A stretch of DNA of 64,000 nt from an uncultured bacterium (GCA_965371245.1 CBDUXT010000022.1:620-64619); one strand, 5' to 3'. Positions 7,046 to 45,699 are shown, counted from the first letter of the stretch. Numbers and translations: made by a program. The notes: generated by a model from the sequence alone, not told the origin.

Positions 7046-7064
7046 GAGCCAAAGTGGAACACCG

Positions 7065-28105: not shown

Positions 28106-28200
28106 GGTCGATTCTCCGAAGCGACGGGTTCTGTTGATGAACCAAAACGTCGGCAAATCGTCTTGACGGCGGCAAACTGTTTATGCTACGCAGTGTACTC

Positions 28201-29073: not shown

Positions 29074-29108
29074 GTTATATGCATCTTTTGGTCCTAAGGA
29101 GACCCAAG

Positions 29109-30245
29109 ATGGCCATGTTCCCGCCCAGATCGGCCCAGTCGCTCGAGTTGCGCGAGGTCCGCTACCACAAGCAGGGCTGGGTCGCCCACATCGCGCTTGA
29201 CCGCCCCCACAACTACAACGCCTACAGCACGCCGGCGCTGACCGAGTTGGCCGCCGCCTTTCAGGACGCCTCCTGGGACGACCGCGTGGCGGTCGTCGTG
29301 TTCACCGGCGTGGGCGACCGCGCGTTTTGTACGGGCGGTGACGTCAAAGAGTACCAGGAGTCGTACACACAGAAGCCACGCGACTACTGGAAGTACATGT
29401 CCTGCTTCAAGGCTTACATCGAGTCCATTACGAACTGCTCCAAGCCGGTGATCGCGCGGCTCAACGGGATGGCCGTCGGCGGCGGGAACGAAAGCCAGCT
29501 TGCGTGTGACCTGTCCGTCATGGGCGAGCACGCGTTCATCGCGCAGGTCGGTACGAACGTCGGTTCGGTGGCGTGCGGCGGTTCGACGCAGTGGCTTCCG
29601 CTTCACGTCGGTGACCGCAAAGCACGCGGGATGTTGTTTCTCAATCAGCGGTACGGGGCGTTCACCTCACTGGCGATGGGGCTGGTCAACGTGGTCGCGC
29701 CGACGGTCAAGGGACCCGATGGCGCCTTCGTGACCAGGTTCACGGGTGGTCGAACGTACCTGGCCGACTGGAACACCGATCCGTGGGAGCAGCCGTTCGA
29801 GTCGCGCGCGACGCCGGAGCAGGTGAAGAAGGCTCAGAAGGGCATCGACGGATTCACGCTCGACCTCTCGGCCGTGGACGAAGCGGTCGCCGAACTTTGC
29901 GACCAGATCGTTCACAAGTTCTCGGAATGTACGCGGTACACGAAGGCTCAGGTCAATTTTTGGAAGGACGCGGCGTGGCATGCCACGGTGGGGCACGCGC
30001 GCGACTGGCTCTCTGTTCATTACACAAGTCTCGAGCCGCACGAGGGCATGTCGGCGTTCGTCGAGAAGCGCAAAGCCAACTATGTGGGGCTGCGTGAACG
30101 TGCGGCCGACCCCGCGGGATCGAGCGAGTTTCTGTGGGGTCCGTATGCCCACACCTGCATGGAGTGCGGCGCCAAGGGGATCCCTCGCGCCTTCGAGTTC
30201 TGCGGAAAGTGCGGGGCGGCGCTCAAGGCACCGGTGGCGACGTAG
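29109..30245 (+). CDS. crotonase-superfamily ring-cleaving hydrolase, Oah/BamA-like (6-oxocyclohex-1-ene-1-carbonyl-CoA hydrolase-like) with C-terminal zinc ribbon
   Basis: MenB/BadI/Oah-type core (AFCTGGDVKEY, LNGMAVGGGNESQLACDL). NYNAYST resembles the QYNSYTT region targeted by bamA primers. Long Oah-type insertion. C-terminal CMECG...CGKCG. AAGGAG RBS before ATG 29109. Confidence 0.65.
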   Translation: MAMFPPRSAQSLELREVRYHKQGWVAHIALDRPHNYNAYSTPALTELAAAFQDASWDDRVAVVVFTGVGDRAFCTGGDVKEYQESYTQKPRDYWKYMSCFKAYIESITNCSKPVIARLNGMAVGGGNESQLACDLSVMGEHAFIAQVGTNVGSVACGGSTQWLPLHVGDRKARGMLFLNQRYGAFTSLAMGLVNVVAPTVKGPDGAFVTRFTGGRTYLADWNTDPWEQPFESRATPEQVKKAQKGIDGFTLDLSAVDEAVAELCDQIVHKFSECTRYTKAQVNFWKDAAWHATVGHARDWLSVHYTSLEPHEGMSAFVEKRKANYVGLRERAADPAGSSEFLWGPYAHTCMECGAKGIPRAFEFCGKCGAALKAPVAT

Positions 30246-30267
30246 CGGGATCGACAGGGAGCGGCGC

Positions 30268-31008
30268 ATGCCCGCGGTTCGACGAGCACTGGTGACCGGC
30301 GGCGCCCGCGGCATCGGTCGTTGCATTGCGACGACGCTGGCACGCGACGGATGCGACGTATGTGTGCTGGACCGCGAGCCGGCGGATGACACCGATATGT
30401 TTGCTTCCGAGATCGAATCTCTCGGTCGAAAGTGCCTGACGCTCACCGGCGACGTGCGTGATGTGGCCGCCGTGCGCGACGCGATCGAATCGGTCGTGGG
30501 GCGGTGGGGCGGCATCGATGTCCTGGTCAACAACGCCGGCATCGTGCGGGATCAAGTCAGTTGGAAGATGAGCGACGACCAATGGCGCGACGTCATCGAC
30601 GTCAACTTGACCGGTGCTTTTTACGTCTGTCGGGCGGTCATTCCCCACATGCGCGAGGCCGGGTGCGGCACGATCATCAATCTTTCGAGCATCAATGGGA
30701 TGCGCGGGAAGTTCGGGCAGGCCAACTACGCCGCGTCCAAGGCGGGCTTGATCGGGCTGACCAAGTCGCTGGCAAGAGAAGTGGCACGGTTCGACATCAC
30801 CGTCAACGCCGTGGCGCCGGGTCTGATCGAGACGGACATTGTGCGGTCCATGTCGGCGGACGCGCTCAAGCAGTCGGCGGGCGAAATCCTTGTGAATCGC
30901 CTGGGGCGCGTGGAGGACGTGGCGGAAGCCGTGGCGTTTCTGGCGAGCGATCGCGCGCGCTTCATCACCGGCGAAGTGCTGCGCGTGGACGGCGGACAAT
31001 ACATCTAG
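30268..31008 (+). CDS. short-chain dehydrogenase/reductase (FabG-like)
   Basis: TGGARGIG, NNAG and the YAASKAG catalytic motif, 246 aa. Confidence 0.88.
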   Translation: MPAVRRALVTGGARGIGRCIATTLARDGCDVCVLDREPADDTDMFASEIESLGRKCLTLTGDVRDVAAVRDAIESVVGRWGGIDVLVNNAGIVRDQVSWKMSDDQWRDVIDVNLTGAFYVCRAVIPHMREAGCGTIINLSSINGMRGKFGQANYAASKAGLIGLTKSLAREVARFDITVNAVAPGLIETDIVRSMSADALKQSAGEILVNRLGRVEDVAEAVAFLASDRARFITGEVLRVDGGQYI

Positions 31009-31020
31009 GGACGAGTTGCC

Positions 31021-31791
31021 ATGAGCAAGTATGACTACTTCGACGTGGGCGTAGCGGACGGGGTGGCCACGGTCACGATGCGGCGCGAACCGCTCAATGT
31101 GCTGCACAACCCCATGATGGCGGAGTTCAACACGATCCTGGAGACGACGCTCTGTGGCTCGAACCTGGCGGCCATCGTGATCCGCGCGGCCGGCAAGGCG
31201 TTCAGCGCCGGCGTCGATGTCGGTGATCATGCGCCCGACAGCGTCGCGGACATGATTCGTCTGTTCCACGGCATTTTCAGGAAGCTGGCCGCCACCGACG
31301 CGGTCACCATCGCCGCGGTGCAGGGCGCGGCGCTGGGCGGCGGATGCGAGCTGGCTTGTTTCTGTGACATCGTACTGGCATCCGAACGCGCCAAATTCGG
31401 CCAGCCGGAGGTTCAGGTCGGCGTGTTCCCGCCGGTGGCGGCGTGCGTGCTTCCCGGACAGGTGGGTATCAAGAAGGCCATCGAGCTCAACGCGCTAGGG
31501 CACACGATCGGCGCGGCGGAGGCCCATCGCATCGGACTGGTCAACCAGGTATTCCCCACGGAATCGTTTGACGAAAGCGTAGAGACGTACCTGGACGACA
31601 TCCGCAAGCTCTCTCGACCCGTGGTGCGCCTGTCGAAGCGAGCGACCTGTTTGGTGTGGCGTGAGCGGGTGCTCGCCCATCTGGATCGGACCGAAGCGCT
31701 CTATCTTGATGAGCTCATGAAGCTTCGGGACGCGAGGGAAGGTATCGCGGCCTTTGTCGAAAAACGAAGCCCCAACTGGTGTCATGCATGA
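31021..31791 (+). CDS. enoyl-CoA hydratase, Dch/BamR-like (cyclohexa-1,5-diene-1-carbonyl-CoA hydratase-like)
   Basis: 256-aa crotonase. FGQPEVQVGVFPPVAACVLP and C-terminal EALYLDELMKLRDAREGIAAFVEKRSPNW resemble my recollection of Thauera Dch. Context includes Oah-like and Had-like genes. Confidence 0.75.
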   Translation: MSKYDYFDVGVADGVATVTMRREPLNVLHNPMMAEFNTILETTLCGSNLAAIVIRAAGKAFSAGVDVGDHAPDSVADMIRLFHGIFRKLAATDAVTIAAVQGAALGGGCELACFCDIVLASERAKFGQPEVQVGVFPPVAACVLPGQVGIKKAIELNALGHTIGAAEAHRIGLVNQVFPTESFDESVETYLDDIRKLSRPVVRLSKRATCLVWRERVLAHLDRTEALYLDELMKLRDAREGIAAFVEKRSPNWCHA

Positions 31792-31834
31792 TGCGCCGGA
31801 ACAAGATCACGCGCTCCACGGAGGATAAGCAACC

Positions 31835-32857
31835 ATGAAAGCGGCAGTGTTTCACGGCGACGACGTCGGTTTGAAGATCGAAGACATTCCGATTCCAACG
31901 ATCGGCGCACACGAAATCCTCGTGAAGGTGGCGGCCTGCGGCGTGTGTCACACCGACCTGCACTACATCGAACACGGCGTGCCGACCTTCAAGAAACCGC
32001 CGCTCGTGTTGGGGCACGAGGCGTCGGGCGTTGTCGAAGAGGTCGGCGGCGAGGTGGAGCATCTCGCCAAAGGGCAGCGTGTGCTGATCCCGGCGGTGCT
32101 GACCTGCGGCAAGTGCATGTTCTGCCGCATGGGCCGTGAAAACATCTGCGCCGACATGACCATGCTCGGCAACCACATCGACGGCGCGTACGCCGAGTTC
32201 GTGGCGGTTCCGGCGAAGGACGTGCTCGACCTGCCGGAATCGATCCCGCTCCATGAGGCGTCGATCATCGCGGACGCGCTCTCCACACCGTATCACGCGG
32301 TCAAGAACCGCGCACGGGTCCAACCCGGCGATACCGTCGTGATCTTCGGGTGCGGCGGCGTGGGCATGGGCGCGGTGCAGGTCGCGGTGGCGAGCGGCGC
32401 CTATGTCATCGCCGTTGATATGAATGAGCGCAAGCTGCAATGGGCGTCCGACTTCGGGTCCGTCAAGACCATCAACGCATCGAAGTTCGAGCGGGTCAGC
32501 AAGGAGGTCAAGAAGCTCACGGGCGGCGGCGCGGACATCGCGATGGAGGTGATCGGCAACCCACGAACGATCGAGGAGGCGTTCGAGTGCGTACGCGTCG
32601 GCGGGCGACTGTGTGTCGTCGGTTATACGCACGAAAAGATATCGCTGGTGGCGGGCAAGATCATGTTCAAGGAGATCGAAGTCGTCGGCTCTTTGGGGTG
32701 TCGACCGCTCGATTACCGGCCGCTGATTCGAATGGTGGAGACCGGCGTGATCGACGTGAAGCGTCAGGTCACGCACCGGTTCAAGCTGGAGGAATTGGAA
32801 CGGGCGTTCGCGGTGATGAAAGAGGGCGTGTCGTTGCGGTCCATCGTGACGCCGTAA
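31835..32857 (+). CDS. Zn-dependent alcohol dehydrogenase, Had-like candidate (6-hydroxycyclohex-1-ene-1-carbonyl-CoA dehydrogenase)
   Basis: GVCHTDLH, GHEASGVVEEVG, structural-Zn Cys cluster CGKCMFCRMGRENIC, Rossmann VIFGCGGVG. Confidence 0.75.
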   Translation: MKAAVFHGDDVGLKIEDIPIPTIGAHEILVKVAACGVCHTDLHYIEHGVPTFKKPPLVLGHEASGVVEEVGGEVEHLAKGQRVLIPAVLTCGKCMFCRMGRENICADMTMLGNHIDGAYAEFVAVPAKDVLDLPESIPLHEASIIADALSTPYHAVKNRARVQPGDTVVIFGCGGVGMGAVQVAVASGAYVIAVDMNERKLQWASDFGSVKTINASKFERVSKEVKKLTGGGADIAMEVIGNPRTIEEAFECVRVGGRLCVVGYTHEKISLVAGKIMFKEIEVVGSLGCRPLDYRPLIRMVETGVIDVKRQVTHRFKLEELERAFAVMKEGVSLRSIVTP

Positions 32858-34114
32858 ATGCGAGCTGAGATGAGCACGATCGCGGTCAAACGAGTTGAGA
32901 TCAAGGCGCAACAGCGGCTGGGCGCGCTGATGCGCGAGCATTTTCTCGACCTCGACGCGGCCGCCCATGATCCGCAGCGCAACGTGGCGTGGTGTACCTC
33001 CGTCGGACCGTGCGAGATTCTGACGGCCATGGGGTTCGAGGTGTACTTCCCGGAGAATCACGGGGCGCTACTCGGTGCGCGGCGCGTCAGCCACGAACTC
33101 ATCCCGCGGGCGGTCGGCATCGGCTACGGCGCGGAGTCGTGTTCCTACATGACCAGCGACATCGGTTCGGCGCTGGCGGGGGTGAGCCCGCTGACGGAGG
33201 CGTTCGGCATCGCCGGCCCGCCGACGCCTGATCTGTTGGTCTACAGCACCAATCAATGCCGCGAGGTGCAGGACTGGTGGAACTTCCACGGCCGGCGCAG
33301 CGGCGCCGCCGTGATGGGCGTGTGTCCGCCCACGCACCTGGGCGAAGTGACGGGTGAACACGTCGCCTTCGTTCGCGGCCTGTTGGAACGGCTGATCGAA
33401 CAGATCGAGCGTCGATTGGGAGCCACGTTGGATCGTGATCGCCTAAAGGAAGTGGTGACGCTGTCCAGCCGGGCGAGCCACCTGTGGCGGCAGGTGCTCG
33501 ATACGGCGCGAGCCCATCCGTCGGCGATGACCTTCTTCGACGGTGTGATTCATATGGCGCCCGTGATCCTCATGCGCGGGTCGAAAAAAGCGATTGATTA
33601 CTACGAAGAGCTGCTCGCCGAGTTGAATCAGCGGGTTGCCGACGGCGTGGGCGCCGTGCCCGACGAACGCTTTCGCATTTATTGGGAGGGGATGCCGATC
33701 TGGCCGAAGGTGCGTGAGCTGGCGGAGAAGTTTTTTGACCTGCGCACTGTCGTCGCCGCGAGCACCTACTGTAACTCATGGGCGTTCGGCGAGTTCGACG
33801 GCGGCGATCCGGTTGAGTGGATGGCGCGGACCAGCATCGAGATCTTCATCAACCGCGATGAGGTTACAAAGCAGGGTTTTCTCGAGGAGATGTTCGAGCG
33901 ATTCGAGATCGACGGCGCGATCTTCCACAACGCACGAACGTGCCCGAACAACACGAACTCGCGTTTTGGCATGGCTCAACGCATTCGCGAAGAAAGGGGT
34001 ATGCCGGTGCTGGTGATCGACGGCGACCTCAGTGACGTGCGGTTCTTTTCGACGGCGCAGACGATGACCAACATCGAGGCGTTTGTCGAACAGCTCGAGG
34101 AGCACACGCGATGA
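32858..34114 (+). CDS. benzoyl-CoA reductase/2-hydroxyacyl-CoA dehydratase superfamily protein, orphan single subunit (DCCP-like candidate)
   Basis: 418 aa. Paralogous by eye to the BcrB-like protein at 43440 (FRIYWEGMPIWP vs FRIVVEGPPPYP; HNARTCPNN vs HSIKSCRLF; DLSDVRFFS vs DLEDPRYY). Seven Cys. No partner subunit adjacent. ATGA overlap with the activase gene. Confidence 0.8.
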   Translation: MRAEMSTIAVKRVEIKAQQRLGALMREHFLDLDAAAHDPQRNVAWCTSVGPCEILTAMGFEVYFPENHGALLGARRVSHELIPRAVGIGYGAESCSYMTSDIGSALAGVSPLTEAFGIAGPPTPDLLVYSTNQCREVQDWWNFHGRRSGAAVMGVCPPTHLGEVTGEHVAFVRGLLERLIEQIERRLGATLDRDRLKEVVTLSSRASHLWRQVLDTARAHPSAMTFFDGVIHMAPVILMRGSKKAIDYYEELLAELNQRVADGVGAVPDERFRIYWEGMPIWPKVRELAEKFFDLRTVVAASTYCNSWAFGEFDGGDPVEWMARTSIEIFINRDEVTKQGFLEEMFERFEIDGAIFHNARTCPNNTNSRFGMAQRIREERGMPVLVIDGDLSDVRFFSTAQTMTNIEAFVEQLEEHTR

Positions 34115-34929
34115 GCGGCGCTCTTTTTGTCGGCATCGATGTCGGATCATCGGCGACCAAGTGCGTCGTGCTCGACGAAAGCGCGACCCTGGTCGGACAC
34201 CACGTGGTCAACTCGGGTTTCGACTACGTCGAGGCGGCCCGGGTCGCACTTCACCACGCCCTGGCTGCGGCCGAGGTCGAGAAACCCGACATCAAACGCT
34301 GCGTGGCCACCGGATACGGACGCGAGCGTGTCGCGCTGGCGGATCGGCGCGTCACTGAAATCACCTGTCATGCGCGCGGCGCCCGCGAGTGGTACCCCGC
34401 GGTACGCAGCATCATCGACGTCGGCGGACAGGACACGAAGGTCATTCGCCTGGGCGAAAACGGGCGCATGGCGGACTACCGCATGAACGCCAAGTGTGCG
34501 GCGGGTACGGGTACGTTTCTCGAATCGATCGCGCACAAGCTCGGGCTTTCGCTGGGGCGCCTGGACGAACTGGCGATGACCTCAACAGAGCGGGTTGTGG
34601 TCAACAGCTACTGCACGGTCTTCGCCGCAACGGAGGTGATCGAGCGGATCAAGGAGGGACAGCCGCCGCGAGATATCGCGATGGGGCTGTTTCGTTCGAT
34701 CGCGACGCGCGTGACGGAGATGCTGGCCGCTCGTGACGGCGCCGTCGCGGTGACCGGCGGCGTGGCGGCCCACTGTCGGGCCTTGGTGCGAGCCCTGGAA
34801 GAAGTGCTTGAGACCGAGGTGCTGTTACCGCCGATGCCGCAGCACGCCGGAGCCTACGGAGCGGCCTTGCTCGCCGCCGAAACGGATGATGTACATAGGA
34901 GCTCGAAGAGCCATGCTGCGTACCGGTGA
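34111..34929 (+). CDS. BcrAD/BadFG/HgdC-type activase ATPase (ASKHA fold, bridging 4Fe-4S)
   Basis: GIDVGSSATKCVVLD, IDVGGQDTKVI, KCAAGTGTFLE and SYCTVFAATEV (the two cluster Cys), 272 aa. Confidence 0.9.
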   Translation: MSGALFVGIDVGSSATKCVVLDESATLVGHHVVNSGFDYVEAARVALHHALAAAEVEKPDIKRCVATGYGRERVALADRRVTEITCHARGAREWYPAVRSIIDVGGQDTKVIRLGENGRMADYRMNAKCAAGTGTFLESIAHKLGLSLGRLDELAMTSTERVVVNSYCTVFAATEVIERIKEGQPPRDIAMGLFRSIATRVTEMLAARDGAVAVTGGVAAHCRALVRALEEVLETEVLLPPMPQHAGAYGAALLAAETDDVHRSSKSHAAYR

Positions 34930-37900
34930 ACTCGGCGTCCATCCGCCCGGTGCATTGGGCGTGGCGTTTTTCATGCACACGCGCGCGGAGTGCTTCGTGG
35001 GCCGCGGCGGTGACGGCATCACGCTGCCGCTCAAGGACGCGGGCGCGCTGAATCTGCTGGACGACGGACGCCAACGATCGATTGCCCTCGGCGGAAAGAT
35101 CCTGGCGAATCTTCTCGAGGCCGACGCGCTGGACCGCATGCCCGAACTTCTCCTGGTCTGCTGTAACCCGAACCAATTAGATCTGGTCACGCAGGAAGTG
35201 ACGCGTTTCCTTGAGAGCCTGGCGGGCCGAGGGCGTTTGCGATCGATCGATGACATCCGGCGCCACGTGCCGATTCTGCTGCTGATGCCCAACGGCGTGC
35301 TGATGGAGCAGACCATCGCCACCTATGAAGATCAAGTCAGCGAAGCCGTCCTGATGGAGCGGCTGCCCGGCGTGGACGAGTCGATGGTGGAGGCACTGAT
35401 GGCGCGAGTGGTCCGCGGCATTTCGCTCCAGGCGGGCGGACGTCGTGGGATGGGACGAGACACCGTGTATCTGCTCGAAAAGAAAGGCTCGCTGGTGTTC
35501 GCCGGCGGCGGGGACTTCGAGCGATCGCGCATCGAGGCGATTCTGGGCGTCCGCCAGTACCCGTTCCACCACGCCAAGGGCGTGCCCGGCACGCGGATCG
35601 AGTTCGACAAGGCGATGATCTCGATGGTCCTCAACGTCGGAGGACTGATTCACACCGTCAAGTCCAGCGGTGAGCTGATCGATCTGCGCATGGGCGACCT
35701 GTGCGGCGACGCGAGCAAGGCGGAATTCGTCGAACGCGTCGGACGCGCGGTGTTCGACGTGGGCCAGGTGGTCGATGCCTATCCACGCGAGGCAAGCTAT
35801 GAAGCCATCTGGGCGAAGCACCGTGCCACCATCATGTCGTTCGCTGGACACATGACCAGCTCGCTCAAGACCCTTCGCGACGCACTGGCGAATGGCTTGA
35901 ACAGTGTCACGCTGTTTTCCAACGAGGAGTGGATTCTGACGCCGCTCTGTCGCTACGCAGCGAAGGCCGGTCTGTCTGAAGCGGAAGCGCTGTTCAAATC
36001 GCTCAAGCACGAGGTTCAGGCGTCCATGGCGCGAGCCATTCGCCATCGAGATCACACCAACCACGGTGGACAACCAGGAGCTACCGACATGCCACTGACG
36101 GCTCAACGCAACATCACGATCGAACTCTTCGACGCCGGCCCCGATCACGTTGCGGTCGTCGGCACCATGCTCGACAGCGAGCATCTGATCAAACTCGATA
36201 TCAAGATCTACCTGCCCGACGAACAGATCGTTAGCAGTCGGCTGAGCATGATTCGCGTGCCGTTTCCCGTGTGCCGCGAGGTCGAGAGCGCGGCCGAGCG
36301 CCTGGTGGGCCTGCGCATCGAACGCGGGGTGCTCGCCGAGATTATTCGTCGCGTTGGCGGTCGCGTGGGGTGCTCGCACATCAAAGAACTCGCCACGAAC
36401 ATCATCTATTTCGTGGCGTCCGATCTGGTGCGCCGCCGGGCCGGCCTGGACCCGCTGAGCGCGGACTTCGGACAGAAACCACCGGAAGAGCGCTTCGCGC
36501 TGACCAAGGAGCTGTTGCGCGATACGTGCCTTGCTTATTGCCAGACGACGTCGCTTGGCCTCGACGAGCAGATCGGCATCAAGCGGGTCGGCGAGGTCCA
36601 TACGAGCAACATTCCGCTGGGCGAGTATGAGTCGTCGGTGGGCGTTGTTCTGCGGAACCGCGCCGAGCGCTTCGGCGACAAGCCCTTCCTTCGTACGCGA
36701 CAAGGCGACGACGAGTCGATGACGACCTGGTCGCGGTTTTTACGCGAGGTGCGCACGATCGCGCGAAACCTGATCGATCTGGGCGTGCGCCCGGGCGACC
36801 GCGTCGGGATGATTTCGGAGAACCGACCGGAGATGTTCGAGGCCGACCTTGCGATCATGGCCATCGGCGCCGTGACCGTGCCGGTGTTCGCCGGATACCC
36901 GCGACATCAAATCGCCTACGTGCTGGGGCACGCCAAGCCGAAACTACTGATCGTCTCGGGCATGCATCAGCTCGATAAGATCGAGGCGGAGCGCCACCCG
37001 TGGATCAAGAAGTGCGTTGCGATGGACTTTGGCGCCGATTGTGCGGCGTGGGGTGCGATCCCCTTCAGCGACCTGCTCGAACCTTCCAAGACGACCGACG
37101 GCGAACTCGACGCAAGAATCGATGCGGTCCAGCCGGACGATCTGTGTCTTGTCATGTATACGTCCGGCACGACCGGCCCGCCGAAGGGGGTTCGTCTGTG
37201 TCATCGCAACATCATCACGCAGCAAAAAGCCATCGAACTCATCTGGGACGTTAGTGACCAGGACGTTTTGCTGAGCTACCTGCCGTGGCACCACAGCTTC
37301 GGCGGAATCTTCGAGCGGTTTCTGGCGCTTTATCACGGGTGCGAACTCTGCCTTGACGATTCTCGCGGGCGCGACGTCGATCGGCTGATCGCCAATTGGA
37401 AGGCCTTCGATCCGACGCTCTTTTTCAGCGTGCCGCGCGTGCATGACCTGATCGTGACCGCCTGCCGCGCGACACAGGAGGTGGACCGTGTCATCTTTGG
37501 TGGGCGGCTCCGCTTCGTGTTCACCGCCGGCGCCTCGCTGCCCGCGCCGGTGGCGGCCACCTACCGACGGCACAACATACCGGTGCTTGAGGGCTGGGGG
37601 CTCACCGAGACCGCCCCGAGCGTGACCCTGACCACGCTCGATGGCTCGTGGCGTAGCGGCTACGTCGGGTTTCCGATCCCCGGCGTCTCGGTTCGCATCG
37701 ACGACGATCAGGAGATTCTGGTCAAGGGTCCCAACGTGATGAGCGGCTACCTCGACGACGAGGAGGCCACCGCCCACGTGCTCGGGTCGAACGGCTGGTT
37801 CAAAACCGGCGACCTCGGCGAGTTCACCAAGAACGGTCTTCGCGTGTTCGGCCGAAAGGACGGCGCCTTCAAACTGACCACCGGCGAGAAGGTCCACCCG

Positions 37901-38320
37901 CAACGGATCGAGACCGTGCTGGTCAACGAGTCGCGTTACATCGACCAGGCCCTGGCATTGGGCAGCGGGGAGGACTTCGTAGGCGCCCTCGTGTATCCGG
38001 CGATGGGTGAACTGACCCGATGGGCCGACGAGCACGGCGCAACGAGTGATGATCTTCTGACGGAGCCGAGTATTCGCGCATTCTTGAGCCGAGAAATCGA
38101 GCGACTCAACGCATTGGTCGAAGTGAAGTATCAGCGCGTTCGGCGCGTGATTCTGACCGATCGCGAGCCGACGCTGGCCAACGGTGAACTGACGCCGTCG
38201 GGCAAGATCGTACGCAAGGCGGTCATCGCCAATCACAAGGATGCCCTGGACGACATGTTTGCGCTGATGCCCGGCGAGCGCGTGATCCGGGTCGGGCACG
38301 TGCAGTTACAAAGGGCGTAA
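34913..38320 (+). CDS. three-domain fusion: PanE/ApbA-like oxidoreductase-like region, DUF2889-like module and AMP-forming acyl-CoA synthetase (FadD/COG1022-like)
   Basis: About 34913-36060: ketopantoate-reductase-like (LLVCCNPNQLDLV, LLLMPNGV, EFDKAMISMVLNVGGL), but the GxGxxG is degenerate. About 36090-36480: RNITIELFD...VGGRVGCSHIKELATN, DUF2889-like from memory. About 36640-38320: AMP-binding (MYTSGTTGPPKGV, GWFKTGDLG, GRKDGAFKLTTGEKV). ATG 34913 lies 11 nt after AGGAG. Confidence 0.8.
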   Translation: MLRTGELGVHPPGALGVAFFMHTRAECFVGRGGDGITLPLKDAGALNLLDDGRQRSIALGGKILANLLEADALDRMPELLLVCCNPNQLDLVTQEVTRFLESLAGRGRLRSIDDIRRHVPILLLMPNGVLMEQTIATYEDQVSEAVLMERLPGVDESMVEALMARVVRGISLQAGGRRGMGRDTVYLLEKKGSLVFAGGGDFERSRIEAILGVRQYPFHHAKGVPGTRIEFDKAMISMVLNVGGLIHTVKSSGELIDLRMGDLCGDASKAEFVERVGRAVFDVGQVVDAYPREASYEAIWAKHRATIMSFAGHMTSSLKTLRDALANGLNSVTLFSNEEWILTPLCRYAAKAGLSEAEALFKSLKHEVQASMARAIRHRDHTNHGGQPGATDMPLTAQRNITIELFDAGPDHVAVVGTMLDSEHLIKLDIKIYLPDEQIVSSRLSMIRVPFPVCREVESAAERLVGLRIERGVLAEIIRRVGGRVGCSHIKELATNIIYFVASDLVRRRAGLDPLSADFGQKPPEERFALTKELLRDTCLAYCQTTSLGLDEQIGIKRVGEVHTSNIPLGEYESSVGVVLRNRAERFGDKPFLRTRQGDDESMTTWSRFLREVRTIARNLIDLGVRPGDRVGMISENRPEMFEADLAIMAIGAVTVPVFAGYPRHQIAYVLGHAKPKLLIVSGMHQLDKIEAERHPWIKKCVAMDFGADCAAWGAIPFSDLLEPSKTTDGELDARIDAVQPDDLCLVMYTSGTTGPPKGVRLCHRNIITQQKAIELIWDVSDQDVLLSYLPWHHSFGGIFERFLALYHGCELCLDDSRGRDVDRLIANWKAFDPTLFFSVPRVHDLIVTACRATQEVDRVIFGGRLRFVFTAGASLPAPVAATYRRHNIPVLEGWGLTETAPSVTLTTLDGSWRSGYVGFPIPGVSVRIDDDQEILVKGPNVMSGYLDDEEATAHVLGSNGWFKTGDLGEFTKNGLRVFGRKDGAFKLTTGEKVHPQRIETVLVNESRYIDQALALGSGEDFVGALVYPAMGELTRWADEHGATSDDLLTEPSIRAFLSREIERLNALVEVKYQRVRRVILTDREPTLANGELTPSGKIVRKAVIANHKDALDDMFALMPGERVIRVGHVQLQRA

Positions 38321-39571
38321 ATGGTGAAGACAAACGAATATCCAGCGATCGTCATCGTCGATGGCGCGCGAACGCCCATCGGCGTCAAGTGCGGCACGCT
38401 GAAGCGCTTTGCGCCGGAGGATCTGGCCACGCTTGCTTGCGAGGAGGCCATCCGCCGTAGCGGCATCGCCCGCGAACGAATCGACACGGCCGTCGGCGCC
38501 AATGTGTATCAATACACGGCCCCCGGCGCGCAGGACATCTATTTCCCGCGCAATGTCGGATTGCGCTGCCGGCTGAACGTCGAAACGCCGGCACTGATGG
38601 TGCAGCGCATCTGCGGCTCGGGCTTGCAAACGATTGTCAGCGCCATGCAGCAGCTCGCCCTGCCCGACGTCGTGGACGACGCGAAAACGGCGCTCTGCTT
38701 CGGCAGCGAGGTGATGTCGCGTACGCCGCAGGTGATTCGCGCTCCGCGCAATGATGCCAACTTCTGGGAATTCGAAGAAGGTGGAACCGTCGAGGACATG
38801 CTGCTGGCCGGACTGAACCACGATCTGGCCCATACCACCATGATGCTCACCGCCGACGAGTACGGTCACGCAACCGGCGTGACACGACAGGCATGCGATG
38901 CGTTCGCATCGCAATCGCATGAGCGCGCCCGAGCCGCCTATCGCAACAGCCATCTCAACGGCGGCGACGCGCTGCATGGCATGTTTGCGATCGACGCAAC
39001 GGACCTGAGCGGAGAACCCGTACACCTCGCCCGGGACGAATGCACCCGAAACACCTCGGCTGAAGCGCTGGCGAAGCTGCGCGGCATCACGCCGCACAAA
39101 CTCGTGTCTGCCGGTAACGCCAGCGAGCTGAGCGACGGGGCGGCCGCGGTGGTGCTGGCCGAGCGCGAGGTCGCTAGGCAAAACGGATGGTCCACGCAAT
39201 TCGAAATCGTCGGCTACTGTGTCCGCGGAGTCGATCCGCGCGTCATGGGCTCCGGCCCGGTGCCCTCCATCAACCAGGCACTGCGTCGCGCCGGGCTTGA
39301 GCAACCCGATATCGGTCTGTGGGAGATCAACGAAGCATTCGCCGCGCAGTATCTCGGCGTGGAAACGCAAATGGGGCTTCCGCGCGAGAACGTCAACGTC
39401 AACGGCGGAGCGATTGCCCTGGGGCATCCCCTGGCCGCCACCGGCGTGCGGCTGATCGTCGATCTCATGTATGAAATGAAGCGTCGCGGCGTCGAGCACG
39501 GCTGCGCCTCGGCTTGTATCGGCGGTGGGCAGGGCATCGCCGTCATCCTGCGAAATACGGAACCAACATGA
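38321..39571 (+). CDS. acetyl-CoA C-acyltransferase (thiolase)
   Basis: Active-site region RICGSGLQ, NVNGGAIALGHPLAATG and CIGGGQGIAVIL. Confidence 0.93.
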   Translation: MVKTNEYPAIVIVDGARTPIGVKCGTLKRFAPEDLATLACEEAIRRSGIARERIDTAVGANVYQYTAPGAQDIYFPRNVGLRCRLNVETPALMVQRICGSGLQTIVSAMQQLALPDVVDDAKTALCFGSEVMSRTPQVIRAPRNDANFWEFEEGGTVEDMLLAGLNHDLAHTTMMLTADEYGHATGVTRQACDAFASQSHERARAAYRNSHLNGGDALHGMFAIDATDLSGEPVHLARDECTRNTSAEALAKLRGITPHKLVSAGNASELSDGAAAVVLAEREVARQNGWSTQFEIVGYCVRGVDPRVMGSGPVPSINQALRRAGLEQPDIGLWEINEAFAAQYLGVETQMGLPRENVNVNGGAIALGHPLAATGVRLIVDLMYEMKRRGVEHGCASACIGGGQGIAVILRNTEPT

Positions 39572-39599
39572 ACCTTTGCCCTCTCAACGGAGCGGTCCC

Positions 39600-42059
39600 A
39601 TGAAGCGCGCATTCTCATTCGGCGACAAGGCGATTGAACCGGCCGTACGCCGCGTCAACGAGATTCGGTGTGTGGCCATCATCGGCGCCGGCACGATGGG
39701 GCAAGGCATCGTCATCGACCTGCTCCGGAAAACGGATTACGCCATTACACTCCTGGATGTGAAGCAGGAGGCACTTGACGCCGCTTGCACTCGGGTCGAA
39801 TCAATCTTCAAGAAAGATGTGGCCGCGCTTCGGATGCGCGAGGAGGATGCCGCCGCTTGTGTCGCGCGGATGACCTATACGCGCAGCTACGATTCGCTTG
39901 GCAAGGCCGACATTGTCTGGGAGGTCGCCACCGAACGAAGTGATGTCAAGGCTTCCATCTTCGCCAAGATCGAGGATGCGATCGATCCCGCGGGTCTTGC
40001 CGCGATCTTCTCGAACACGTCATCGCACACGACGGCCGAACTCGCCGAACTGTTTCGTTCGGAGGCGTTTCGCGAAAGATTCCTGACCGTTCACGGATAC
40101 TATCCGTTCGAAGCCAACCGCCTCATCGACGTCATGAAGGGCAAGTACGCCTCTAACGCCACGTTCAAGATCGCCACGGTCTTCGCCGACCAGATCCTCG
40201 AAAAGACGGTCATCGCGCTGCCGGTCGATCACCACGGCTACATCACCGATCCGATCTTTCAGGCGATGGGCGCCATCATTTCGTGGGACGTCAAGACCTC
40301 GAAGGACATCGTCGAGCGCGGCGGACTGTGGGACCTCTTTACGGCCAATCCGTTCGTCGTGCTCGACCAAACCGGGCACATGCCCTACACCGAGTCATCG
40401 CGCCACCTCGGCACCGCGTTGCCCGAAACCGATCGACTGCGCAGCCTCTACCAGCGCGACGGCGCGTTCTATCCGGCATGGATCGCGCGGCTGGAGCGCG
40501 ACGGACGTACCGGGGTTCAGTCCAGCGAGCGTCGCGGCTTCTTCGCCTGGAGTTCGGACGATCGACCCAAGCCCACGGCCGTACTCGATCCACAAACGAA
40601 CGAATACGTACCGATCTGCGAGATATCACGAAAAGATCACTGGTCCTACTACGAGGCCTCGGAGCAGGATCGCCTCGCCGGTCGGATCAAGAGTGCCGAG
40701 TCCCTCGTGCATGTCGCCTGTGCGGGTGACGCGGGTGGGCGCGCGTTCCGGCGCTATGTCCTTCCGATTTGCCTCTATGCCCTGGATATGATTCAGGATC
40801 GCATCGCCACACCCGGGCAGATCAACATGGCGACCCGGGCGGGGCTTCGCTTCAAGGTGGGGCTGATCGAACTCATCGACACGCTCATCGCCCATCTGAC
40901 GATCGACGGCGTGATCGAACTGATCCGCAGGGCGCGCGATGAGAACGCCGACGATCCTCTCATGGTAGAGATGCTCGACGTGGACGGCGCCGCGGGGCCA
41001 CGCCAAGGCCGGCCGTGTTTGCTGTGGGACATGAAGCGTCGCAACCTCCCGCGACTGCTCGGCTACGGCAAACACTATCGAACGCCGGTCGCGGAACTCG
41101 ATCTTGAAACCGGCACGTACCGAGGTTGCTATCTCGATCTCAAAATGACCGCGCCCTCGTCGAAAGACCGTGTCGCGAGCATCGTGTTCAACAGCTCGCT
41201 GCGTGGGAACGTATTCAACAAGTCCGTCATCGATCAACTCGCCCACGCGTTCAGTCGCGTGCTTGCGCTGCATCAAAAAGGTGCGTGCGGGGCCGTGCTC
41301 TTCAGCGCCGCCGGTTGCGGGATGCGCATGCTCGGCGCCGATGCACGAGAGTTCAATCGCGGCTGGTTCGAGCGCGAGCAGGGGTATGCGCCGCTGGACG
41401 AATCCGAGGCGGCGGCCTCGAGTCGCAACGCAGTCTCACTCTTCCGTTTGATACAACGGAGTCCCGTCGCGTCCATCGGCGTCTTCGGCGAAAAGTGGGG
41501 CGGGGGGGCGGAATTCAGCTATTTTCTGGATCTTCGGTACGACGTACGCGCCCACGGTTTCACGTTCGACTCGCTCGAACGAGAGTCCCGATGGGGACGG
41601 AAGAACACCTACAACCAACCGGAACTCGACTTTGCGATTCTTCCCGGTTTCGGCGCGGCCGGTGAACTCAAACGCCTCGGCATGGGCGACTCGATCATCT
41701 TTGAACTGTTCGATCAAGGACTGACGGCCGATCGCGCCCACCAGGTCGGCCTGAGCAACGGCGTGTTCGATGATGAATGGGAGGGGATCCGGCGGGGCTT
41801 CGAACGTGCCCGGCAGATGGCCAAGGACGCGCCCTACTCGCGGGCTCTGTTCAAGCAGGAACTCGCCCGCGGCGCGGATGACGAGGCGCTGGCCGGTGAC
41901 ACGGCCGCGACGTTCGACCCCAAGCGTAACCCGTTCATACGAACCGGGCTGCTGGCCTTACTCGATCGCGAACATCGAGCGCCGACGATGAACTACGCCT
42001 GCAACGGTGTTCAGCTCCCCGGATGGCAGTACCCCACGGAAAATGGAATGGCCGATTGA
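39600..42059 (+). CDS. bifunctional 3-hydroxyacyl-CoA dehydrogenase (N-terminal) / crotonase-fold (C-terminal) protein
   Basis: VAIIGAGTMGQGIV Rossmann motif and the 3HCDH N and C domains. The C-terminal ~300 aa has a crotonase-like segment (VLFSAAGCGMRMLGADAREF). 819 aa. Confidence 0.85.
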   Translation: MKRAFSFGDKAIEPAVRRVNEIRCVAIIGAGTMGQGIVIDLLRKTDYAITLLDVKQEALDAACTRVESIFKKDVAALRMREEDAAACVARMTYTRSYDSLGKADIVWEVATERSDVKASIFAKIEDAIDPAGLAAIFSNTSSHTTAELAELFRSEAFRERFLTVHGYYPFEANRLIDVMKGKYASNATFKIATVFADQILEKTVIALPVDHHGYITDPIFQAMGAIISWDVKTSKDIVERGGLWDLFTANPFVVLDQTGHMPYTESSRHLGTALPETDRLRSLYQRDGAFYPAWIARLERDGRTGVQSSERRGFFAWSSDDRPKPTAVLDPQTNEYVPICEISRKDHWSYYEASEQDRLAGRIKSAESLVHVACAGDAGGRAFRRYVLPICLYALDMIQDRIATPGQINMATRAGLRFKVGLIELIDTLIAHLTIDGVIELIRRARDENADDPLMVEMLDVDGAAGPRQGRPCLLWDMKRRNLPRLLGYGKHYRTPVAELDLETGTYRGCYLDLKMTAPSSKDRVASIVFNSSLRGNVFNKSVIDQLAHAFSRVLALHQKGACGAVLFSAAGCGMRMLGADAREFNRGWFEREQGYAPLDESEAAASSRNAVSLFRLIQRSPVASIGVFGEKWGGGAEFSYFLDLRYDVRAHGFTFDSLERESRWGRKNTYNQPELDFAILPGFGAAGELKRLGMGDSIIFELFDQGLTADRAHQVGLSNGVFDDEWEGIRRGFERARQMAKDAPYSRALFKQELARGADDEALAGDTAATFDPKRNPFIRTGLLALLDREHRAPTMNYACNGVQLPGWQYPTENGMAD

Positions 42060-42124
42060 TGGGGACCGAAGGCGCCGAAGCGATCGGCGCCGCGAGGCCA
42101 AGAGCCTGGCCCAAATTGTGTGGC

Positions 42125-42147
42125 ACCGGCATCTTGCCGGTCTTTTC
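42125..42147 (+). terminator. candidate intrinsic terminator
   Basis: ACCGGCA-TCT-TGCCGGT (7-bp stem) followed by CTTTTC, 66 nt after the stop of the preceding gene. A second GC-rich hairpin GGCGCCGA-AGCGA-TCGGCGCC lies just upstream of it, starting ~10 nt after that gene's stop. Confidence 0.4.
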
Positions 42148-42210
42148 ACGGACTCGAAGCCCGTGGCGCACTTGTTATTGGGATAGGTTCCAGGACCAAC
42201 GGAGGTAAGC

Positions 42211-43365
42211 GTGACACAAGACGAAATCATTCAGCACTGTCGAAACCTGCTGGAGTTGCTGCCCGGTCAAGCGCTGGCCCAGGCGCGACGGCAGCATGGC
42301 GATATCGGCGGGTTCGGTGTTTTTCCGGTCTATGCTCCGGTCGAAATCATACACGCGGCCGGCCTCATGCCGGTCGGGCTGTTCGGCGCGGGTGATAAGG
42401 TCGAGCTGTCGCACGCGGAGTCTCGGTTTCAGTCCTTCATCTGTTCGATCGCCAAGAGCACGCTCGAGCTGTTCCTCAGCGGCGAGATGAAGGATTTCCA
42501 AGGCACCGTGTTCAGTTCAATCTGTGACGTCGCTCGCAATCTAGCGAGTCTGGTGAAACGCAACGTCCCGGAACTCTACATCGAGTACCTGCACATGCCC
42601 CAGAATATGTACAGCGCCCAATCGCTCAACTTCACTCGCGCGGAGTTCGAACGTTTTCGCGCGAACCTCTCGAGACATCTCGGGCGACCCATCACCGAAG
42701 ACGCGATCCGCAAGAGCTTGGCGCTCTACAACGAAGTGCGCGATCTGACCCGAAGGCTCTACGCTCATCGCAAGAGTCATCCCACGTCGATCGCGGCGGC
42801 CGACCTTTACGCGGTGGTTCAGGCCGGCACGCGCATGATGCCCGAAGATTACGCGCCGATGCTGCGCGAGTTCTGCGAGCACGCGCAGGCCGCCAAAGTC
42901 AAACCGCGAGACGGTGTCCGCGTCGTGGTCGAGGGCGCCTTCTGCGAACAGCCGCCCATCGGCCTGATCGATGTCATCGAGGCGAGCGGCTGTATCGTGC
43001 AGGACGACGACATCGCCATCGGCTGGCGACTCTTCGATCAAGACGTGGAATGCAACGGCGATCCGCTCGCGGCGCTGTCCAAGGCCTACCTCGCCGGCAG
43101 CACGTACACGTCGGTCCGTCACGACGTCAACAAGCCGCGCAGCGACCAACTGATCGACAGGATGAAGCGCGCGGGCGCCGAGGCTGTTCTTTTTACCCCG
43201 GCCAAGTTCTGCGAGCCCGCCCTGCTCGACTATGTCCTGTTTCGGCAGAAACTGGAAGCGGCGGACGTGCCGCATCTGAAGATCGAGTTTGAAGAGAAAA
43301 TGTGGACGTTCGAGACGACCCGAACGGAAGTCGAGACCTTCGCGGAGTCCATGCTCTTTGATTGA
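42211..43365 (+). CDS. bcrC: class I benzoyl-CoA reductase subunit, BcrC/BadD/BzdN-like
   Basis: HAD/BCR family. GGFGVFPVYAPVEIIHAAGLMPVGLFGAG is the typical BcrC N-terminus. 384 aa, GTG start after GGAGG. Confidence 0.85.
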   Translation: MTQDEIIQHCRNLLELLPGQALAQARRQHGDIGGFGVFPVYAPVEIIHAAGLMPVGLFGAGDKVELSHAESRFQSFICSIAKSTLELFLSGEMKDFQGTVFSSICDVARNLASLVKRNVPELYIEYLHMPQNMYSAQSLNFTRAEFERFRANLSRHLGRPITEDAIRKSLALYNEVRDLTRRLYAHRKSHPTSIAAADLYAVVQAGTRMMPEDYAPMLREFCEHAQAAKVKPRDGVRVVVEGAFCEQPPIGLIDVIEASGCIVQDDDIAIGWRLFDQDVECNGDPLAALSKAYLAGSTYTSVRHDVNKPRSDQLIDRMKRAGAEAVLFTPAKFCEPALLDYVLFRQKLEAADVPHLKIEFEEKMWTFETTRTEVETFAESMLFD

Positions 43366-43439
43366 GTGCGTGTAGCGGCGCCGCGACAGGAACCAAGAAA
43401 CCCGCTAGGACACCGGAACTCCGGTCGGAGCGAAACCTG

Positions 43440-44723
43440 ATGAGAACAGACGTTGCTGAAACGAAGGACTATCGCGGCAATGTGCATGAGCTGTCGCGCA
43501 ACATCATGACCGATTGGATGCAGGAACTGAAGGAGGCCACCGACAGCCCCGCGCCGTCCGCGTACATGATGATCAGCGGCAACTGCGTGGAAATCCTGCG
43601 ATGCTTCGACATCCTGCCGGTTTTTCCCGAGGTCAACGCCTTGCAACTGGCCATCCGGAAAAAATCGCTGCCCTACATCATCAAGAGCGAGGAAGTGGGG
43701 TACGCCTCTGACAACTGCGCGTACGTCAAGGCCGACATCGGATTCACGATGTGCGGCGGCGTCGGCGAGGGCGGCACGGTTCCCAAGCCTTCTTTCATCG
43801 TATGCAACTTCGTCGGCTGCAACGTCTACATCAAGTGGTTCGAACACTGCGCCCAGATGATGAACGTGCCGATGATCATGCTCGACGTGCCGTTTCTGCG
43901 CGAGGACGCGCCGAGCCAAGCAGACGTAGCCTACGTCATGTGTCAACTGCATGAACTCATCGAACGGTGCGAGGCGCTCACCGGCAAGAAGTTCGACATG
44001 GATCGGCTTCGAGAAATCCTGAAATACTCCGCCCGCGCCGAAGCCGGTTGGAGCCGCGCGAAAGAACTCTGCAAACATCGCCCGGCGCCGTTTGACGCCT
44101 ATTTCGACAGCATCAACATGATGGGGCCGATCAACGCCCTGCGCGGCACGAAGGAGGCGGCCGACTTCTTCGATGCCACGGTGGCGGAATACGAAAACAT
44201 GGTGGCCGAGGGCATCGGCGTGCTGGATGACGAACGCTTCCGCATCGTTGTGGAAGGCCCTCCGCCATATCCCTACTACCGCAACTTCCGCAATCTGTTC
44301 GAGGCCTGGGGTGCGGTGGCCGTTCAAAGCACCTACTCCACCGTTGGCGGCACCTGGGAGTTCGGATTCCGCCACGATCCGGATCGCCCCTTGGAGAGCA
44401 TCGCCGAGCAGATGATCCTGCACAACCTCTGCAATCGCTCGATGATCGAGCGCTACAAACAGATTCGAACGTACGTCGAAGACTGGCACGCAGACGCACT
44501 GGTGATCCACAGCATCAAGAGCTGTCGGCTGTTTTCCGCCGGGCAGGGCGACATGCGCGAGTATTTCACCAAGGATCTCGGCGTACCGACGTTGATGGTC
44601 GAGTCTGATCTCGAGGATCCGCGATACTATGCGGAGGCGCAGATGAAAAACCGCATCGACGCGTTCTTCGAGTCGCTGCAATACAAGCGCATGCGCCAAG
44701 GAGAAGAGGCGGCAACCGCCTGA
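43440..44723 (+). CDS. bcrB: class I benzoyl-CoA reductase subunit, BcrB/BadE/BzdO-like
   Basis: DNCAYVKADIG, GCNVYIKWFEH, FDMDRLREILKYSARAE, FRIVVEGPPPYP, GFRHDPDRPLESIAEQ, SIKSCRLFSAGQ and DLEDPRYY closely resemble my recollection of Thauera BcrB. An alternative TTG start at 43362 overlaps the bcrC stop. Confidence 0.88.
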   Translation: MRTDVAETKDYRGNVHELSRNIMTDWMQELKEATDSPAPSAYMMISGNCVEILRCFDILPVFPEVNALQLAIRKKSLPYIIKSEEVGYASDNCAYVKADIGFTMCGGVGEGGTVPKPSFIVCNFVGCNVYIKWFEHCAQMMNVPMIMLDVPFLREDAPSQADVAYVMCQLHELIERCEALTGKKFDMDRLREILKYSARAEAGWSRAKELCKHRPAPFDAYFDSINMMGPINALRGTKEAADFFDATVAEYENMVAEGIGVLDDERFRIVVEGPPPYPYYRNFRNLFEAWGAVAVQSTYSTVGGTWEFGFRHDPDRPLESIAEQMILHNLCNRSMIERYKQIRTYVEDWHADALVIHSIKSCRLFSAGQGDMREYFTKDLGVPTLMVESDLEDPRYYAEAQMKNRIDAFFESLQYKRMRQGEEAATA

Positions 44724-44755
44724 ACAACGCGACAAGACCGAAAGGGTTGGAATCC

Positions 44756-45592: not shown

Positions 45593-45699
45593 CGACGCAA
45601 CACGCCGGCGAATCAACTTGCCGGATACGGCGGGAATCAAAAAAATGGCGCGGCGCGACTGACGGCCACGCGGTAAGAAGAACCATCAAGGAGTGAAAC

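Follow-up and report, generated by a model that had tools for sequence, protein, structure and literature searches.

A 64,000-nucleotide stretch of DNA from an uncultured bacterium (GCA_965371245.1, CBDUXT010000022.1:620-64619; this whole stretch is called the window below) contains a gene at 34913-38320 whose product of 1135 amino acids (aa) joins an oxidoreductase-like domain, a DUF2889 module and an acyl-CoA synthetase. The question that this locus raises is what such a protein does at the place where a benzoate-CoA ligase would be expected. Our favored explanation, to which we assign a probability of about 0.5, is that the fusion would be the AMP-forming CoA-ligase step of a conserved, TetR-flanked operon of the anaerobic benzoyl-CoA type, and that the gene would give two nested products, namely, the 1135-aa reductase-DUF2889-ligase and a 743-aa DUF2889-ligase. 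Nothing is unusual about the ligase chemistry; what is new lies in the N-terminal modules, in the fact that they recur independently alongside CoA ligases, and in the nested start site. Literature searches on DUF2889 and on Phycisphaerae or Planctomycetes with benzoyl-CoA returned nothing on this three-module architecture, and the architecture has no established role; it was also unfamiliar to the first-pass annotation of the window.

The fusion gene and its conservation

The protein is encoded by a single open reading frame (ORF) on the plus strand, which runs from an ATG at 34913 to a stop at 38320 and has the following parts and signals.

34897-34901, plus strand: AGGAG, Shine-Dalgarno sequence of the full-length start, 11 nt 5' of the ATG
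34913-38320, plus strand: three-module ORF, 1135 aa, complete
34913-36067, plus strand: residues 1-385, domain with a diverged ketopantoate-reductase (KPR)/D-mandelate-dehydrogenase fold (AF2 model, Foldseek, hhalign, conservation)
36068-36088, plus strand: variable linker with an internal AGGAG at 36076-36080, within the least conserved stretch (about residues 376-400)
36089-36091, plus strand: internal ATG, Met393, present in 68/68 orthologues; putative start codon for a nested DUF2889-ligase isoform of 743 aa
36089-36637, plus strand: residues 393-575, DUF2889 module with a conserved C-terminal extension (Pfam match at residues 424-497, nt 36182-36403)
36638-38320, plus strand: residues 576-1135, AMP-forming acyl-CoA synthetase (Pfam matches at residues 581-947, N-terminal, and 987-1117, AMP-binding_C_3)

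The three-part architecture and its approximate domain boundaries, as first proposed, were recovered by Pfam, the AlphaFold model and Foldseek. The ORF coordinates also give the previously noted overlap of 17 nt between the fusion ORF and the gene on its 5' side for a BcrAD/BadFG-type ATPase (activase, 34111-34929), and a thiolase gene begins at 38321, with zero gap after the fusion stop.

One genome per GTDB species was scanned, which gave 113 relatives, of which the best 80 loci were kept. In these 80 loci, residues 1-570 were matched contiguously at 58-82% identity; 67 of the 80 hold complete ORFs and 12 run off contigs, and the conservation alignment, on which all the orthologue counts out of 68 are based, comprises 68 sequences. 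All of the 67 complete orthologues were single ORFs of 1125-1179 aa, and the sources were nearly all metagenome-assembled genomes (MAGs) of Phycisphaerae or Planctomycetota. The first homology search had given 41 close relatives from independent assemblies, 58-79% identical, many of them truncated by contig ends and most bearing a Phycisphaerae or Planctomycetota label; a single distant protein, a standalone N-domain, was also recovered. A full-length representative of 1140 aa exhibited the same three Pfam domains. Conservation was flat over the three modules, with the only dip at the linker (residues 376-400), and all three modules appear to be under equal purifying selection. Taken together, it is virtually certain that the gene is a real fusion conserved throughout a lineage of uncultured Phycisphaerae.

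The first-pass annotation had named a frameshift or an assembly chimera as the result that would overturn its reading, and shorter database entries do exist (gene calls of 743-748 aa and, in a complete genome, an entry of 707 aa); nevertheless, the chance that the long ORF is an artefact joining two or three genes is practically nil because the complete orthologues, coming from independent assemblies, are without exception single ORFs and the short forms are explained, the frames of the 743-748-aa calls being open upstream to the contig edge or following a 1-nt indel inside the N-domain, the 707-aa entry being what is left of a decayed copy, with a truncated dehydrogenase gene at its side, and the composition being even throughout the gene (GC, 0.60-0.67). 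A separate two-domain DUF2889-ligase architecture of 743-748 aa was rejected on the same evidence of open or indel-shifted frames.

Two observations concern individual loci. In a 3.8-Mb Phycisphaerales genome (CP070718.1, locus L002), the 707-aa truncated copy of the fusion adjoins a truncated Zn-dehydrogenase gene, and the remaining operon is absent, so that the locus looks like the remnant of a decaying cluster. The MAGs that hold two of the loci (L014 and L072) are labelled Ectothiorhodospiraceae and Acidobacteriota; all the other loci are from Planctomycetota, and these two labels are probably binning errors, transfers being less likely.

The three modules

Judged by its sequence, the C-terminal module (residues 576-1135) is a complete adenylate-forming CoA ligase of the long-chain/feruloyl-CoA-synthase-like branch. 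The Pfam AMP-binding domain was matched with an E value of 8e-79 (265.6 bits, compared with a cutoff of 29.9). The core motifs YTSGTTGPPKG, GWGLTET, KTGDLG, GRKDGAFKLTTGEKV and TPSGKIVRK are all intact in the translation, the standard being the ANL motifs A3, (T/S)SG(T/S)TGxPKG; A5, GxTE; A7, TGD; A8, the GRxxD hinge; and A10, PxxxxGK with the catalytic Lys. The motif blocks are 0.77-0.90 conserved in the orthologues. The best NCBIfam matches were PRK12582, the long-chain-fatty-acid-CoA ligase PRK06187 and FadD11, all of them far below their cutoffs; PRK12582 (NF009232) was aligned end to end over residues 562-1126, but with 267.3 bits against a cutoff of 777. A benzoate-CoA-ligase model was absent among the 25 best of the 105 NCBIfam matches. 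These matches, together with AMP-binding_C_3, bear out the earlier assignment of the ligase to the FadD/long-chain type. The nearest PDB structures were those of oxalate-CoA ligase and malonyl-CoA synthetase (E values of about 1e-34 to 1e-31), and the benzoate-CoA ligase 2v7b ranked 44th (E 5.7e-22). In a tblastn search of plasmids, the full-length matches were 28-30% identical and mostly annotated as feruloyl-CoA synthase, and the best match to the ligase, at 33.5%, was a polyketide-synthase loading domain. Because identities are low and the scores lie below every NCBIfam cutoff, the substrate of the ligase is not readable from homology.

The fusion thus shares with the feruloyl-CoA synthase branch (Fcs, PRK12582, COG1022) a full adenylation domain with the core motifs and AMP-binding_C_3, whereas it differs in an N-terminal extension of 575 residues, made up of two modules, and in its location in a benzoyl-CoA reductase operon. 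With the benzoate- and 4-hydroxybenzoate-CoA ligases BadA, BclA, BamY and HbaA, it has in common its operon role as the sole acid-activating enzyme; its ligase, however, falls into another clade of the ANL superfamily. The known benzoate- and 4-hydroxybenzoate-CoA ligases are single-module proteins of about 520-540 aa. From its motifs and its place in the operon, the module is very probably a functional CoA ligase of a benzoyl-CoA-type pathway.

The N-terminal domain (residues 1-385) gave no Pfam or NCBIfam match at E values of up to 1. Neither the N-terminal 570 aa nor a profile of 40 family sequences matched any PDB sequence, and a Pfam search at E values of up to 10 with 40 N-domain family members gave no recurrent family, only one of the 40 matching ApbA_C (E 0.15). 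The other outcome that had been named as fatal to the original reading, namely, that the N-terminal 570 aa would belong to a known ligase-associated domain, did not materialize, as no such domain was matched. An AlphaFold model of the N-domain, built from the family alignment, reached a predicted local distance difference test score (pLDDT) of 91.4 and a predicted TM score of 0.88, and the top 44 matches of this model in a Foldseek search of the PDB were all KPR or D-mandelate dehydrogenase (E values of 3e-12 to 2e-8; target-normalised TM scores of 0.63-0.75; identity of 14-18%), including the D-mandelate dehydrogenases 5x20 and 3wfj and the ketopantoate reductases 1ks9, 2ofp, 5hws and 5ayv. 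The predicted structure has the arrangement of the KPR fold, a Rossmann N-domain and an all-helical C-domain. The description as PanE/ApbA-like is therefore correct at the level of the fold; the KPR sequence profiles (PF02558 and PF08546) do not match.

The dinucleotide-binding loop does not conform to GxGxxG. It reads P11-P12-G13-A14-L15-G16, where KPR has GCGALG, so that the earlier remark on a departure from the motif stands. However, the motif is not degenerate, as had been stated; the PPGALG loop is invariant in the orthologues and near-invariant in the wider family (PxGxxG family-wide), and because the Pro is present in 68/68, it is a fixed variant and not a sign of decay. Invariant in all the orthologues are P11, G13, G16, N127, K233, N241, S316, S317 and E338. 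Among standalone family members at about 30% identity, N127, K233, N241, S316 and E338 remain invariant, and P11, G13 and G16 are conserved at 90% or more. An hhalign alignment with Escherichia coli PanE, with a probability of only 7.8%, pairs K233 with K176, N241 with N184, and S316/S317 with S243/S244, and by eye, N127 (in PNG) matches N98 of KPR (in HNG) and E338 matches E256. The N-domain resembles KPR (PanE/ApbA) and D-mandelate (D-2-hydroxyacid) dehydrogenase in its two-domain fold and in the invariance of the residues tentatively aligned with Asn98, Lys176, Asn184, Ser244 and Glu256 of KPR. It differs from them in its low identity and the absence of a Pfam ApbA or ApbA_C match in this protein, in being about 85 residues longer, in PPGALG in place of GxGxxG, and in its fusion to other modules. 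We put the chances that this KPR-like domain is catalytically active at even.

An exhaustive profile search with the N-domain gave 167 representatives, most of which are standalone proteins of about 385 aa without a Pfam domain. Three mutually distant proteins of about 1065 aa (P0201-P0203) have the KPR-fold domain fused to a CoA-ligase module of the succinyl-CoA-synthetase-alpha type, and the gene for one of them (locus L098, 8001-11201) overlaps by 14 nt a fused gene for an acyl-CoA carboxyltransferase of the acetyl-CoA-carboxylase type. That the domain has twice been joined, independently, to unrelated classes of CoA ligase argues that this large KPR-fold family, which is invisible to sequence profiles, works with acid-CoA ligation.

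Other members of the family occur in different settings. In P0177, P0185, P0187 and P0199, the domain lies inside much larger proteins, which include one of 1243 aa with a radical SAM domain, one of 1575 aa with an adenylate-kinase-like domain, and giants of 3640-3925 aa. In loci L003, L004 and L005 (8001-9200, 5019-6218 and 8001-9188), standalone KPR-fold genes of 395-399 aa without a Pfam match follow a gene for a 136-aa ACT-domain protein, with one base in between in L003 and L004 and directly abutting in L005; the order of LexA, ACT-domain gene and KPR-fold gene recurs on different contigs.

For the middle module (residues about 393-575), the reported DUF2889 signature is present as GCSHIKEL at residues 486-493, and Pfam DUF2889 (PF11136) was matched at residues 424-497 (E 1.7e-12; 48.1 bits, compared with a cutoff of 25), the match spanning only positions 45-117 of the 123 of the profile. 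A homology search with this module alone gave just fragments and one standalone member. The model of residues 393-575, with a mean pLDDT of 71 and a core at 85-94, consists of an antiparallel sheet of four strands and, after it, three helices, and a Foldseek search of the PDB with it gave nothing below an E value of 0.1. An immunoglobulin-like sandwich, to which DUF2889 is assigned in a 2015 remote-homology study (PMC4520260), was rejected because it misfits this predicted sheet and its helices.

The module was also aligned with distant standalone DUF2889 proteins at 20-28% identity (P0291, from a metagenome, and annotated plasmid proteins of Variovorax, Burkholderia and Pacificitalea). C454, C487, H489 and C539 are invariant in all of these and in five distant members overall; in the orthologues, the three Cys are present in 68/68 and H489 in 66/68. 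A Cys3His metal site is proposed because of the conservation of these Cys, GC(S/T)H and Cys residues. The identical pattern, a Pfam score above the gathering cutoff and a CoA-ester gene neighborhood, which is frequent around standalone DUF2889 genes, are the likenesses to the standalone proteobacterial proteins. In Variovorax and Pacificitalea, such genes stand amid AMP-binding, CoA-transferase, thioesterase, hydratase and thiolase genes. In contrast to them, the module of the fusion is without a P-x-HD insertion, has its own conserved C-terminal extension and sits between two other modules. DUF2889 thereby gains a first functional handle, in the invariant Cys3His site and the physical link to a CoA ligase.

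A candidate internal start at Met393

Met393, which had escaped the first-pass annotation, was examined because seven independent gene calls (P0033-P0039) began there. It stands at the end of the variable linker, at the boundary between the reductase and DUF2889 modules, and is invariant in 68/68. A Shine-Dalgarno core (GGAG, GAGG or AGGA) is present at -20 to -4 of Met393 in 61/68 orthologues, which is the highest frequency of all the 1118 columns of the alignment (background, 0.155 +/- 0.185); the annotated start, Met1, has such a core in 56/68, and other conserved Met codons in 1-49%. The spacing to Met393 is 7-9 nt in 55 of the 61, positions -12 to -9 are almost wholly purine, and position -11 is G in 67/68. 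In the window, the internal AGGAG lies 8 nt before the ATG at 36089, and its extended form AGGAGCT is identical to seven bases at the main start.

The heptapeptide that precedes Met393 has 65 distinct forms. In spite of this variety, AGG occupies codon -4 in 33 of the sequences, GGA does so in 26 and GGG in 6, although AGG makes up only 5% of the Arg codons and GGA 13% of the Gly codons gene-wide; the codons preferred elsewhere, GGC (50%) and CGC/CGG (72%), are absent from this position. Since the Shine-Dalgarno sequence is kept by means of rare codons amid varied heptapeptides, selection acts on the nucleotides, not on the protein. The comparison thus points to an in-frame start with a properly spaced Shine-Dalgarno sequence that is conserved beyond what the protein requires, and from the conserved Met393 and this nucleotide-level signal, a nested DUF2889-ligase isoform of 743 aa is likely. 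We consider it fairly likely, on these comparative grounds, that initiation at Met393 is used.

Nested in-frame isoforms from internal starts are known in bacteria, for example, for IF2, ClpB, CheA and SpaO. The present gene resembles these in having an in-frame ATG with its own Shine-Dalgarno sequence at a domain boundary and an N-terminally shortened predicted product, and differs from them in that the start is predicted here from comparative sequence. For a metabolic enzyme, this conserved start makes the question of nested isoforms cleanly testable.

Operon context and proposed function

The genes around the fusion are as follows.

24330-28863, minus strand: TetR regulator, FAD subunit, and fused 2Fe-2S/molybdenum-cofactor (MoCo) subunit of the xanthine-oxidase family; divergent, syntenic in orthologous loci
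29079-32857, plus strand: Oah-like crotonase, short-chain dehydrogenase/reductase (SDR), Dch-like crotonase and Had-like Zn-dehydrogenase; syntenic in orthologous loci
32858-34114, plus strand: HadB-like HGD-D gene; facultative in orthologous clusters
34111-34929, plus strand: acyl-CoA dehydratase activase; facultative in orthologous clusters
38321-46557, plus strand: thiolase, 844-aa 3-hydroxyacyl-CoA dehydrogenase and four BcrC/B/A/D-like reductase subunits; downstream operon genes

The neighbors in the window best match benzoyl-CoA-pathway equivalogs (Oah, Dch, Had and BcrC/B/A/D), with scores below the cutoffs. The scan of the other large ORFs in the window brought up no further AMP-binding domain, so that the fusion, as the sole gene of this type found in a benzoyl-CoA-type cluster, does hold the position of a benzoate-CoA ligase that had been assigned to it. 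The gene order recurs over the 80 loci in two variants, with or without the HGD-D/activase pair. In one locus of the pair-less, type-B variant (L058), BzdN (490 against 454), BzdO (692 against 449) and BzdQ (435 against 380) all score above the equivalog cutoffs. Over the 65 loci with enough upstream sequence, the pair lies directly upstream of the fusion in 38-39 and is missing in 26. Where the reductase is in view, all 29 pair-containing loci have a Bcr-like reductase and all 10 pair-less loci a distant one, so that the pair tracks the type of reductase and not the fusion, which retains its conserved residues with or without the pair. What accompanies the fusion throughout is therefore the set of benzoyl-CoA pathway genes, and the functional tie to an orphan HGD-D/activase pair that was proposed originally is not supported; a dependence of the fusion on the pair was rejected by this synteny. 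The data suggest instead that the pair is an accessory of the non-canonical Bcr-like reductase (42211-46557).

Several features of the neighboring genes were also observed. The 844-aa 3-hydroxyacyl-CoA dehydrogenase (39525-42059) is covered by Pfam only at residues about 50-231 and 409-490; its C-terminal 350 residues or so are without a Pfam domain, and its length is conserved in orthologous clusters (836 aa in L058). The xanthine-oxidase-family enzyme (24330-28156, minus strand) has its 2Fe-2S and MoCo subunits fused into a protein of 965 aa and its FAD subunit separate; its genes, divergent from the operon behind the TetR gene, are syntenic in most orthologous loci, and it may be a 4-hydroxybenzoyl-CoA reductase. 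In pair-less clusters (L023, L029, L058 and others of type B), the SDR and Dch-like genes are separated by an additional gene, for an acetyl-CoA C-acyltransferase (in L058, at 6331-7521), and the SDR of these clusters, about 50% identical to that of the window, matches FabG/acetoacetyl-CoA reductase models. The SDR ORF of the window is listed from 29980 (region 29079-31008) and overlaps the Oah-like gene, which stops at 30245; because the SDR domain begins at about residue 103, the start is probably near 30260-30280, just past that stop.

In the favored explanation, the ligase would thioesterify the aromatic acid, aryl or aryl-alkanoic, with which the benzoyl-CoA funnel is fed. The KPR-like domain would be an active NAD(P)(H)-dependent oxidoreductase acting on a 2-oxo or 2-hydroxy carboxylic acid, so that 2-oxygenated acids would be both interconverted and activated by the long isoform, with the short isoform acting as a plain ligase, and DUF2889 would be a Cys3His metal-binding accessory of CoA-ester enzymes, packed against the ligase. 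The roles of the N-terminal modules are put forward as hypotheses, and so is the substrate of the ligase; the specific coupling to 2-oxo/2-hydroxy acids, in particular, is a tentative and rather doubtful element.

A number of points weigh against this explanation. The N-domain fails every PanE/ApbA sequence-profile test, its residue equivalences depend on the weak hhalign alignment and the fold match, and with the first Gly of GxGxxG replaced by Pro, NAD(P) binding is only predicted. In two Verrucomicrobia-like contexts, standalone KPR-like genes adjoin the ACT-domain gene and LexA, not CoA genes. The internal Shine-Dalgarno sequence and ATG may be left over, and preserved, from the event that fused the genes. 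Confidence in the DUF2889 model is only moderate, the PDB search gave it no structural relative, the metal site of the module was deduced from conservation alone, and one of the three standalone DUF2889 contexts is without CoA genes. For the ligase, which is under every NCBIfam cutoff and at most about 30% identical to annotated plasmid proteins, homology leaves the substrate unfixed.

Alternatively, the N-terminal modules would be non-catalytic, the KPR-fold domain binding CoA, acyl-CoA or an adenine nucleotide at its altered nucleotide site and serving as a sensor, a regulator or an oligomerisation platform for an ordinary benzoate- or 4-hydroxybenzoate-CoA ligase, with the internal start setting the ratio of regulated to unregulated enzyme. 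The structural matches include a CoA-bound KPR of Thermococcus (5ayv, with CoA in the NADP site), replacement of the first Gly of GxGxxG extends through the family, two unrelated CoA-ligase classes are fused to its members, standalone members pair with a gene for the ligand-sensing ACT domain, and the cluster has both a 4-hydroxybenzoyl-CoA-reductase-like Mo enzyme and a benzoyl-CoA reductase. However, the counterparts of the catalytic Asn, Lys, Ser and Glu of KPR are invariant at about 30% family identity, which is atypical for a pure binding domain, and the ligase lies outside the benzoate-CoA-ligase clade; we regard this alternative as possible, if unlikely.

It is also unlikely that the fusion is a reductase-ligase that feeds the dehydratase, in which an aryl-2-oxo acid (phenylpyruvate, for example) would be reduced by the KPR-like domain to its (R)-2-hydroxy form and converted by the ligase, in place of the clostridial CoA transferase, to the 2-hydroxyacyl-CoA; the HadB-like HGD-D protein and the activase would then yield the enoyl-CoA, and beta-oxidation would lead to benzoyl-CoA. 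This scheme would account for the D-2-hydroxyacid (D-mandelate) dehydrogenase and KPR structures at the top of the matches, for the upstream gene whose best match is 2-hydroxyisocaproyl-CoA dehydratase alpha next to an activase that scores above its cutoff, for the overlap of the activase gene with the fusion, and for the hydratase, SDR, 3-hydroxyacyl-CoA dehydrogenase and thiolase of the operon. On the other hand, the residues at the catalytic positions are still invariant in the clusters that lack the pair directly upstream, the perfect correlation of the pair with the Bcr-like as opposed to the Bzd-type reductase links it to the reductase, and only one HGD-D subunit is encoded, whereas the known 2-hydroxyacyl-CoA dehydratases are alpha/beta heterodimers.

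That the ligase serves the lower aliphatic pathway or a general activation of fatty or dicarboxylic acids (for example, pimelate, glutarate or fatty acids) is quite improbable. Its best family matches are of the long-chain/FadD type with AMP-binding_C_3 at the C terminus, and the next gene is a thiolase in 48/57 loci and a 3-hydroxyacyl-CoA dehydrogenase in 7/57; yet the benzoyl-CoA pathway yields CoA esters throughout and thus leaves no free aliphatic acid to activate, no other ligase for the ring substrate was found in the cluster, and the full-length plasmid matches are mostly feruloyl-CoA synthases, which are aryl-propenoate ligases.

The explanation by an acid-activating enzyme with nested products bears on the biology of the Phycisphaerae, which are abundant and almost wholly uncultured in anoxic sediments, aquifers and oil-impacted sites. 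The operon is common to at least 67 species-level genomes, and its entry enzyme would therefore decide which aromatic acids are fed to the benzoyl-CoA pathway. It is unlikely that every part of the joint reading holds at once, that is, two nested enzymes, a reductase acting on the substrate of the ligase, DUF2889 as a Cys3His metal domain and an entry route specific to Phycisphaerae. If it does, the nested reductase-ligase and DUF2889-ligase would together mark out a way into the anaerobic benzoyl-CoA pathway that is specific to Phycisphaerae, and DUF2889 would turn out to be a Cys3His metal domain, not recognised before, that acts alongside CoA-ester enzymes.

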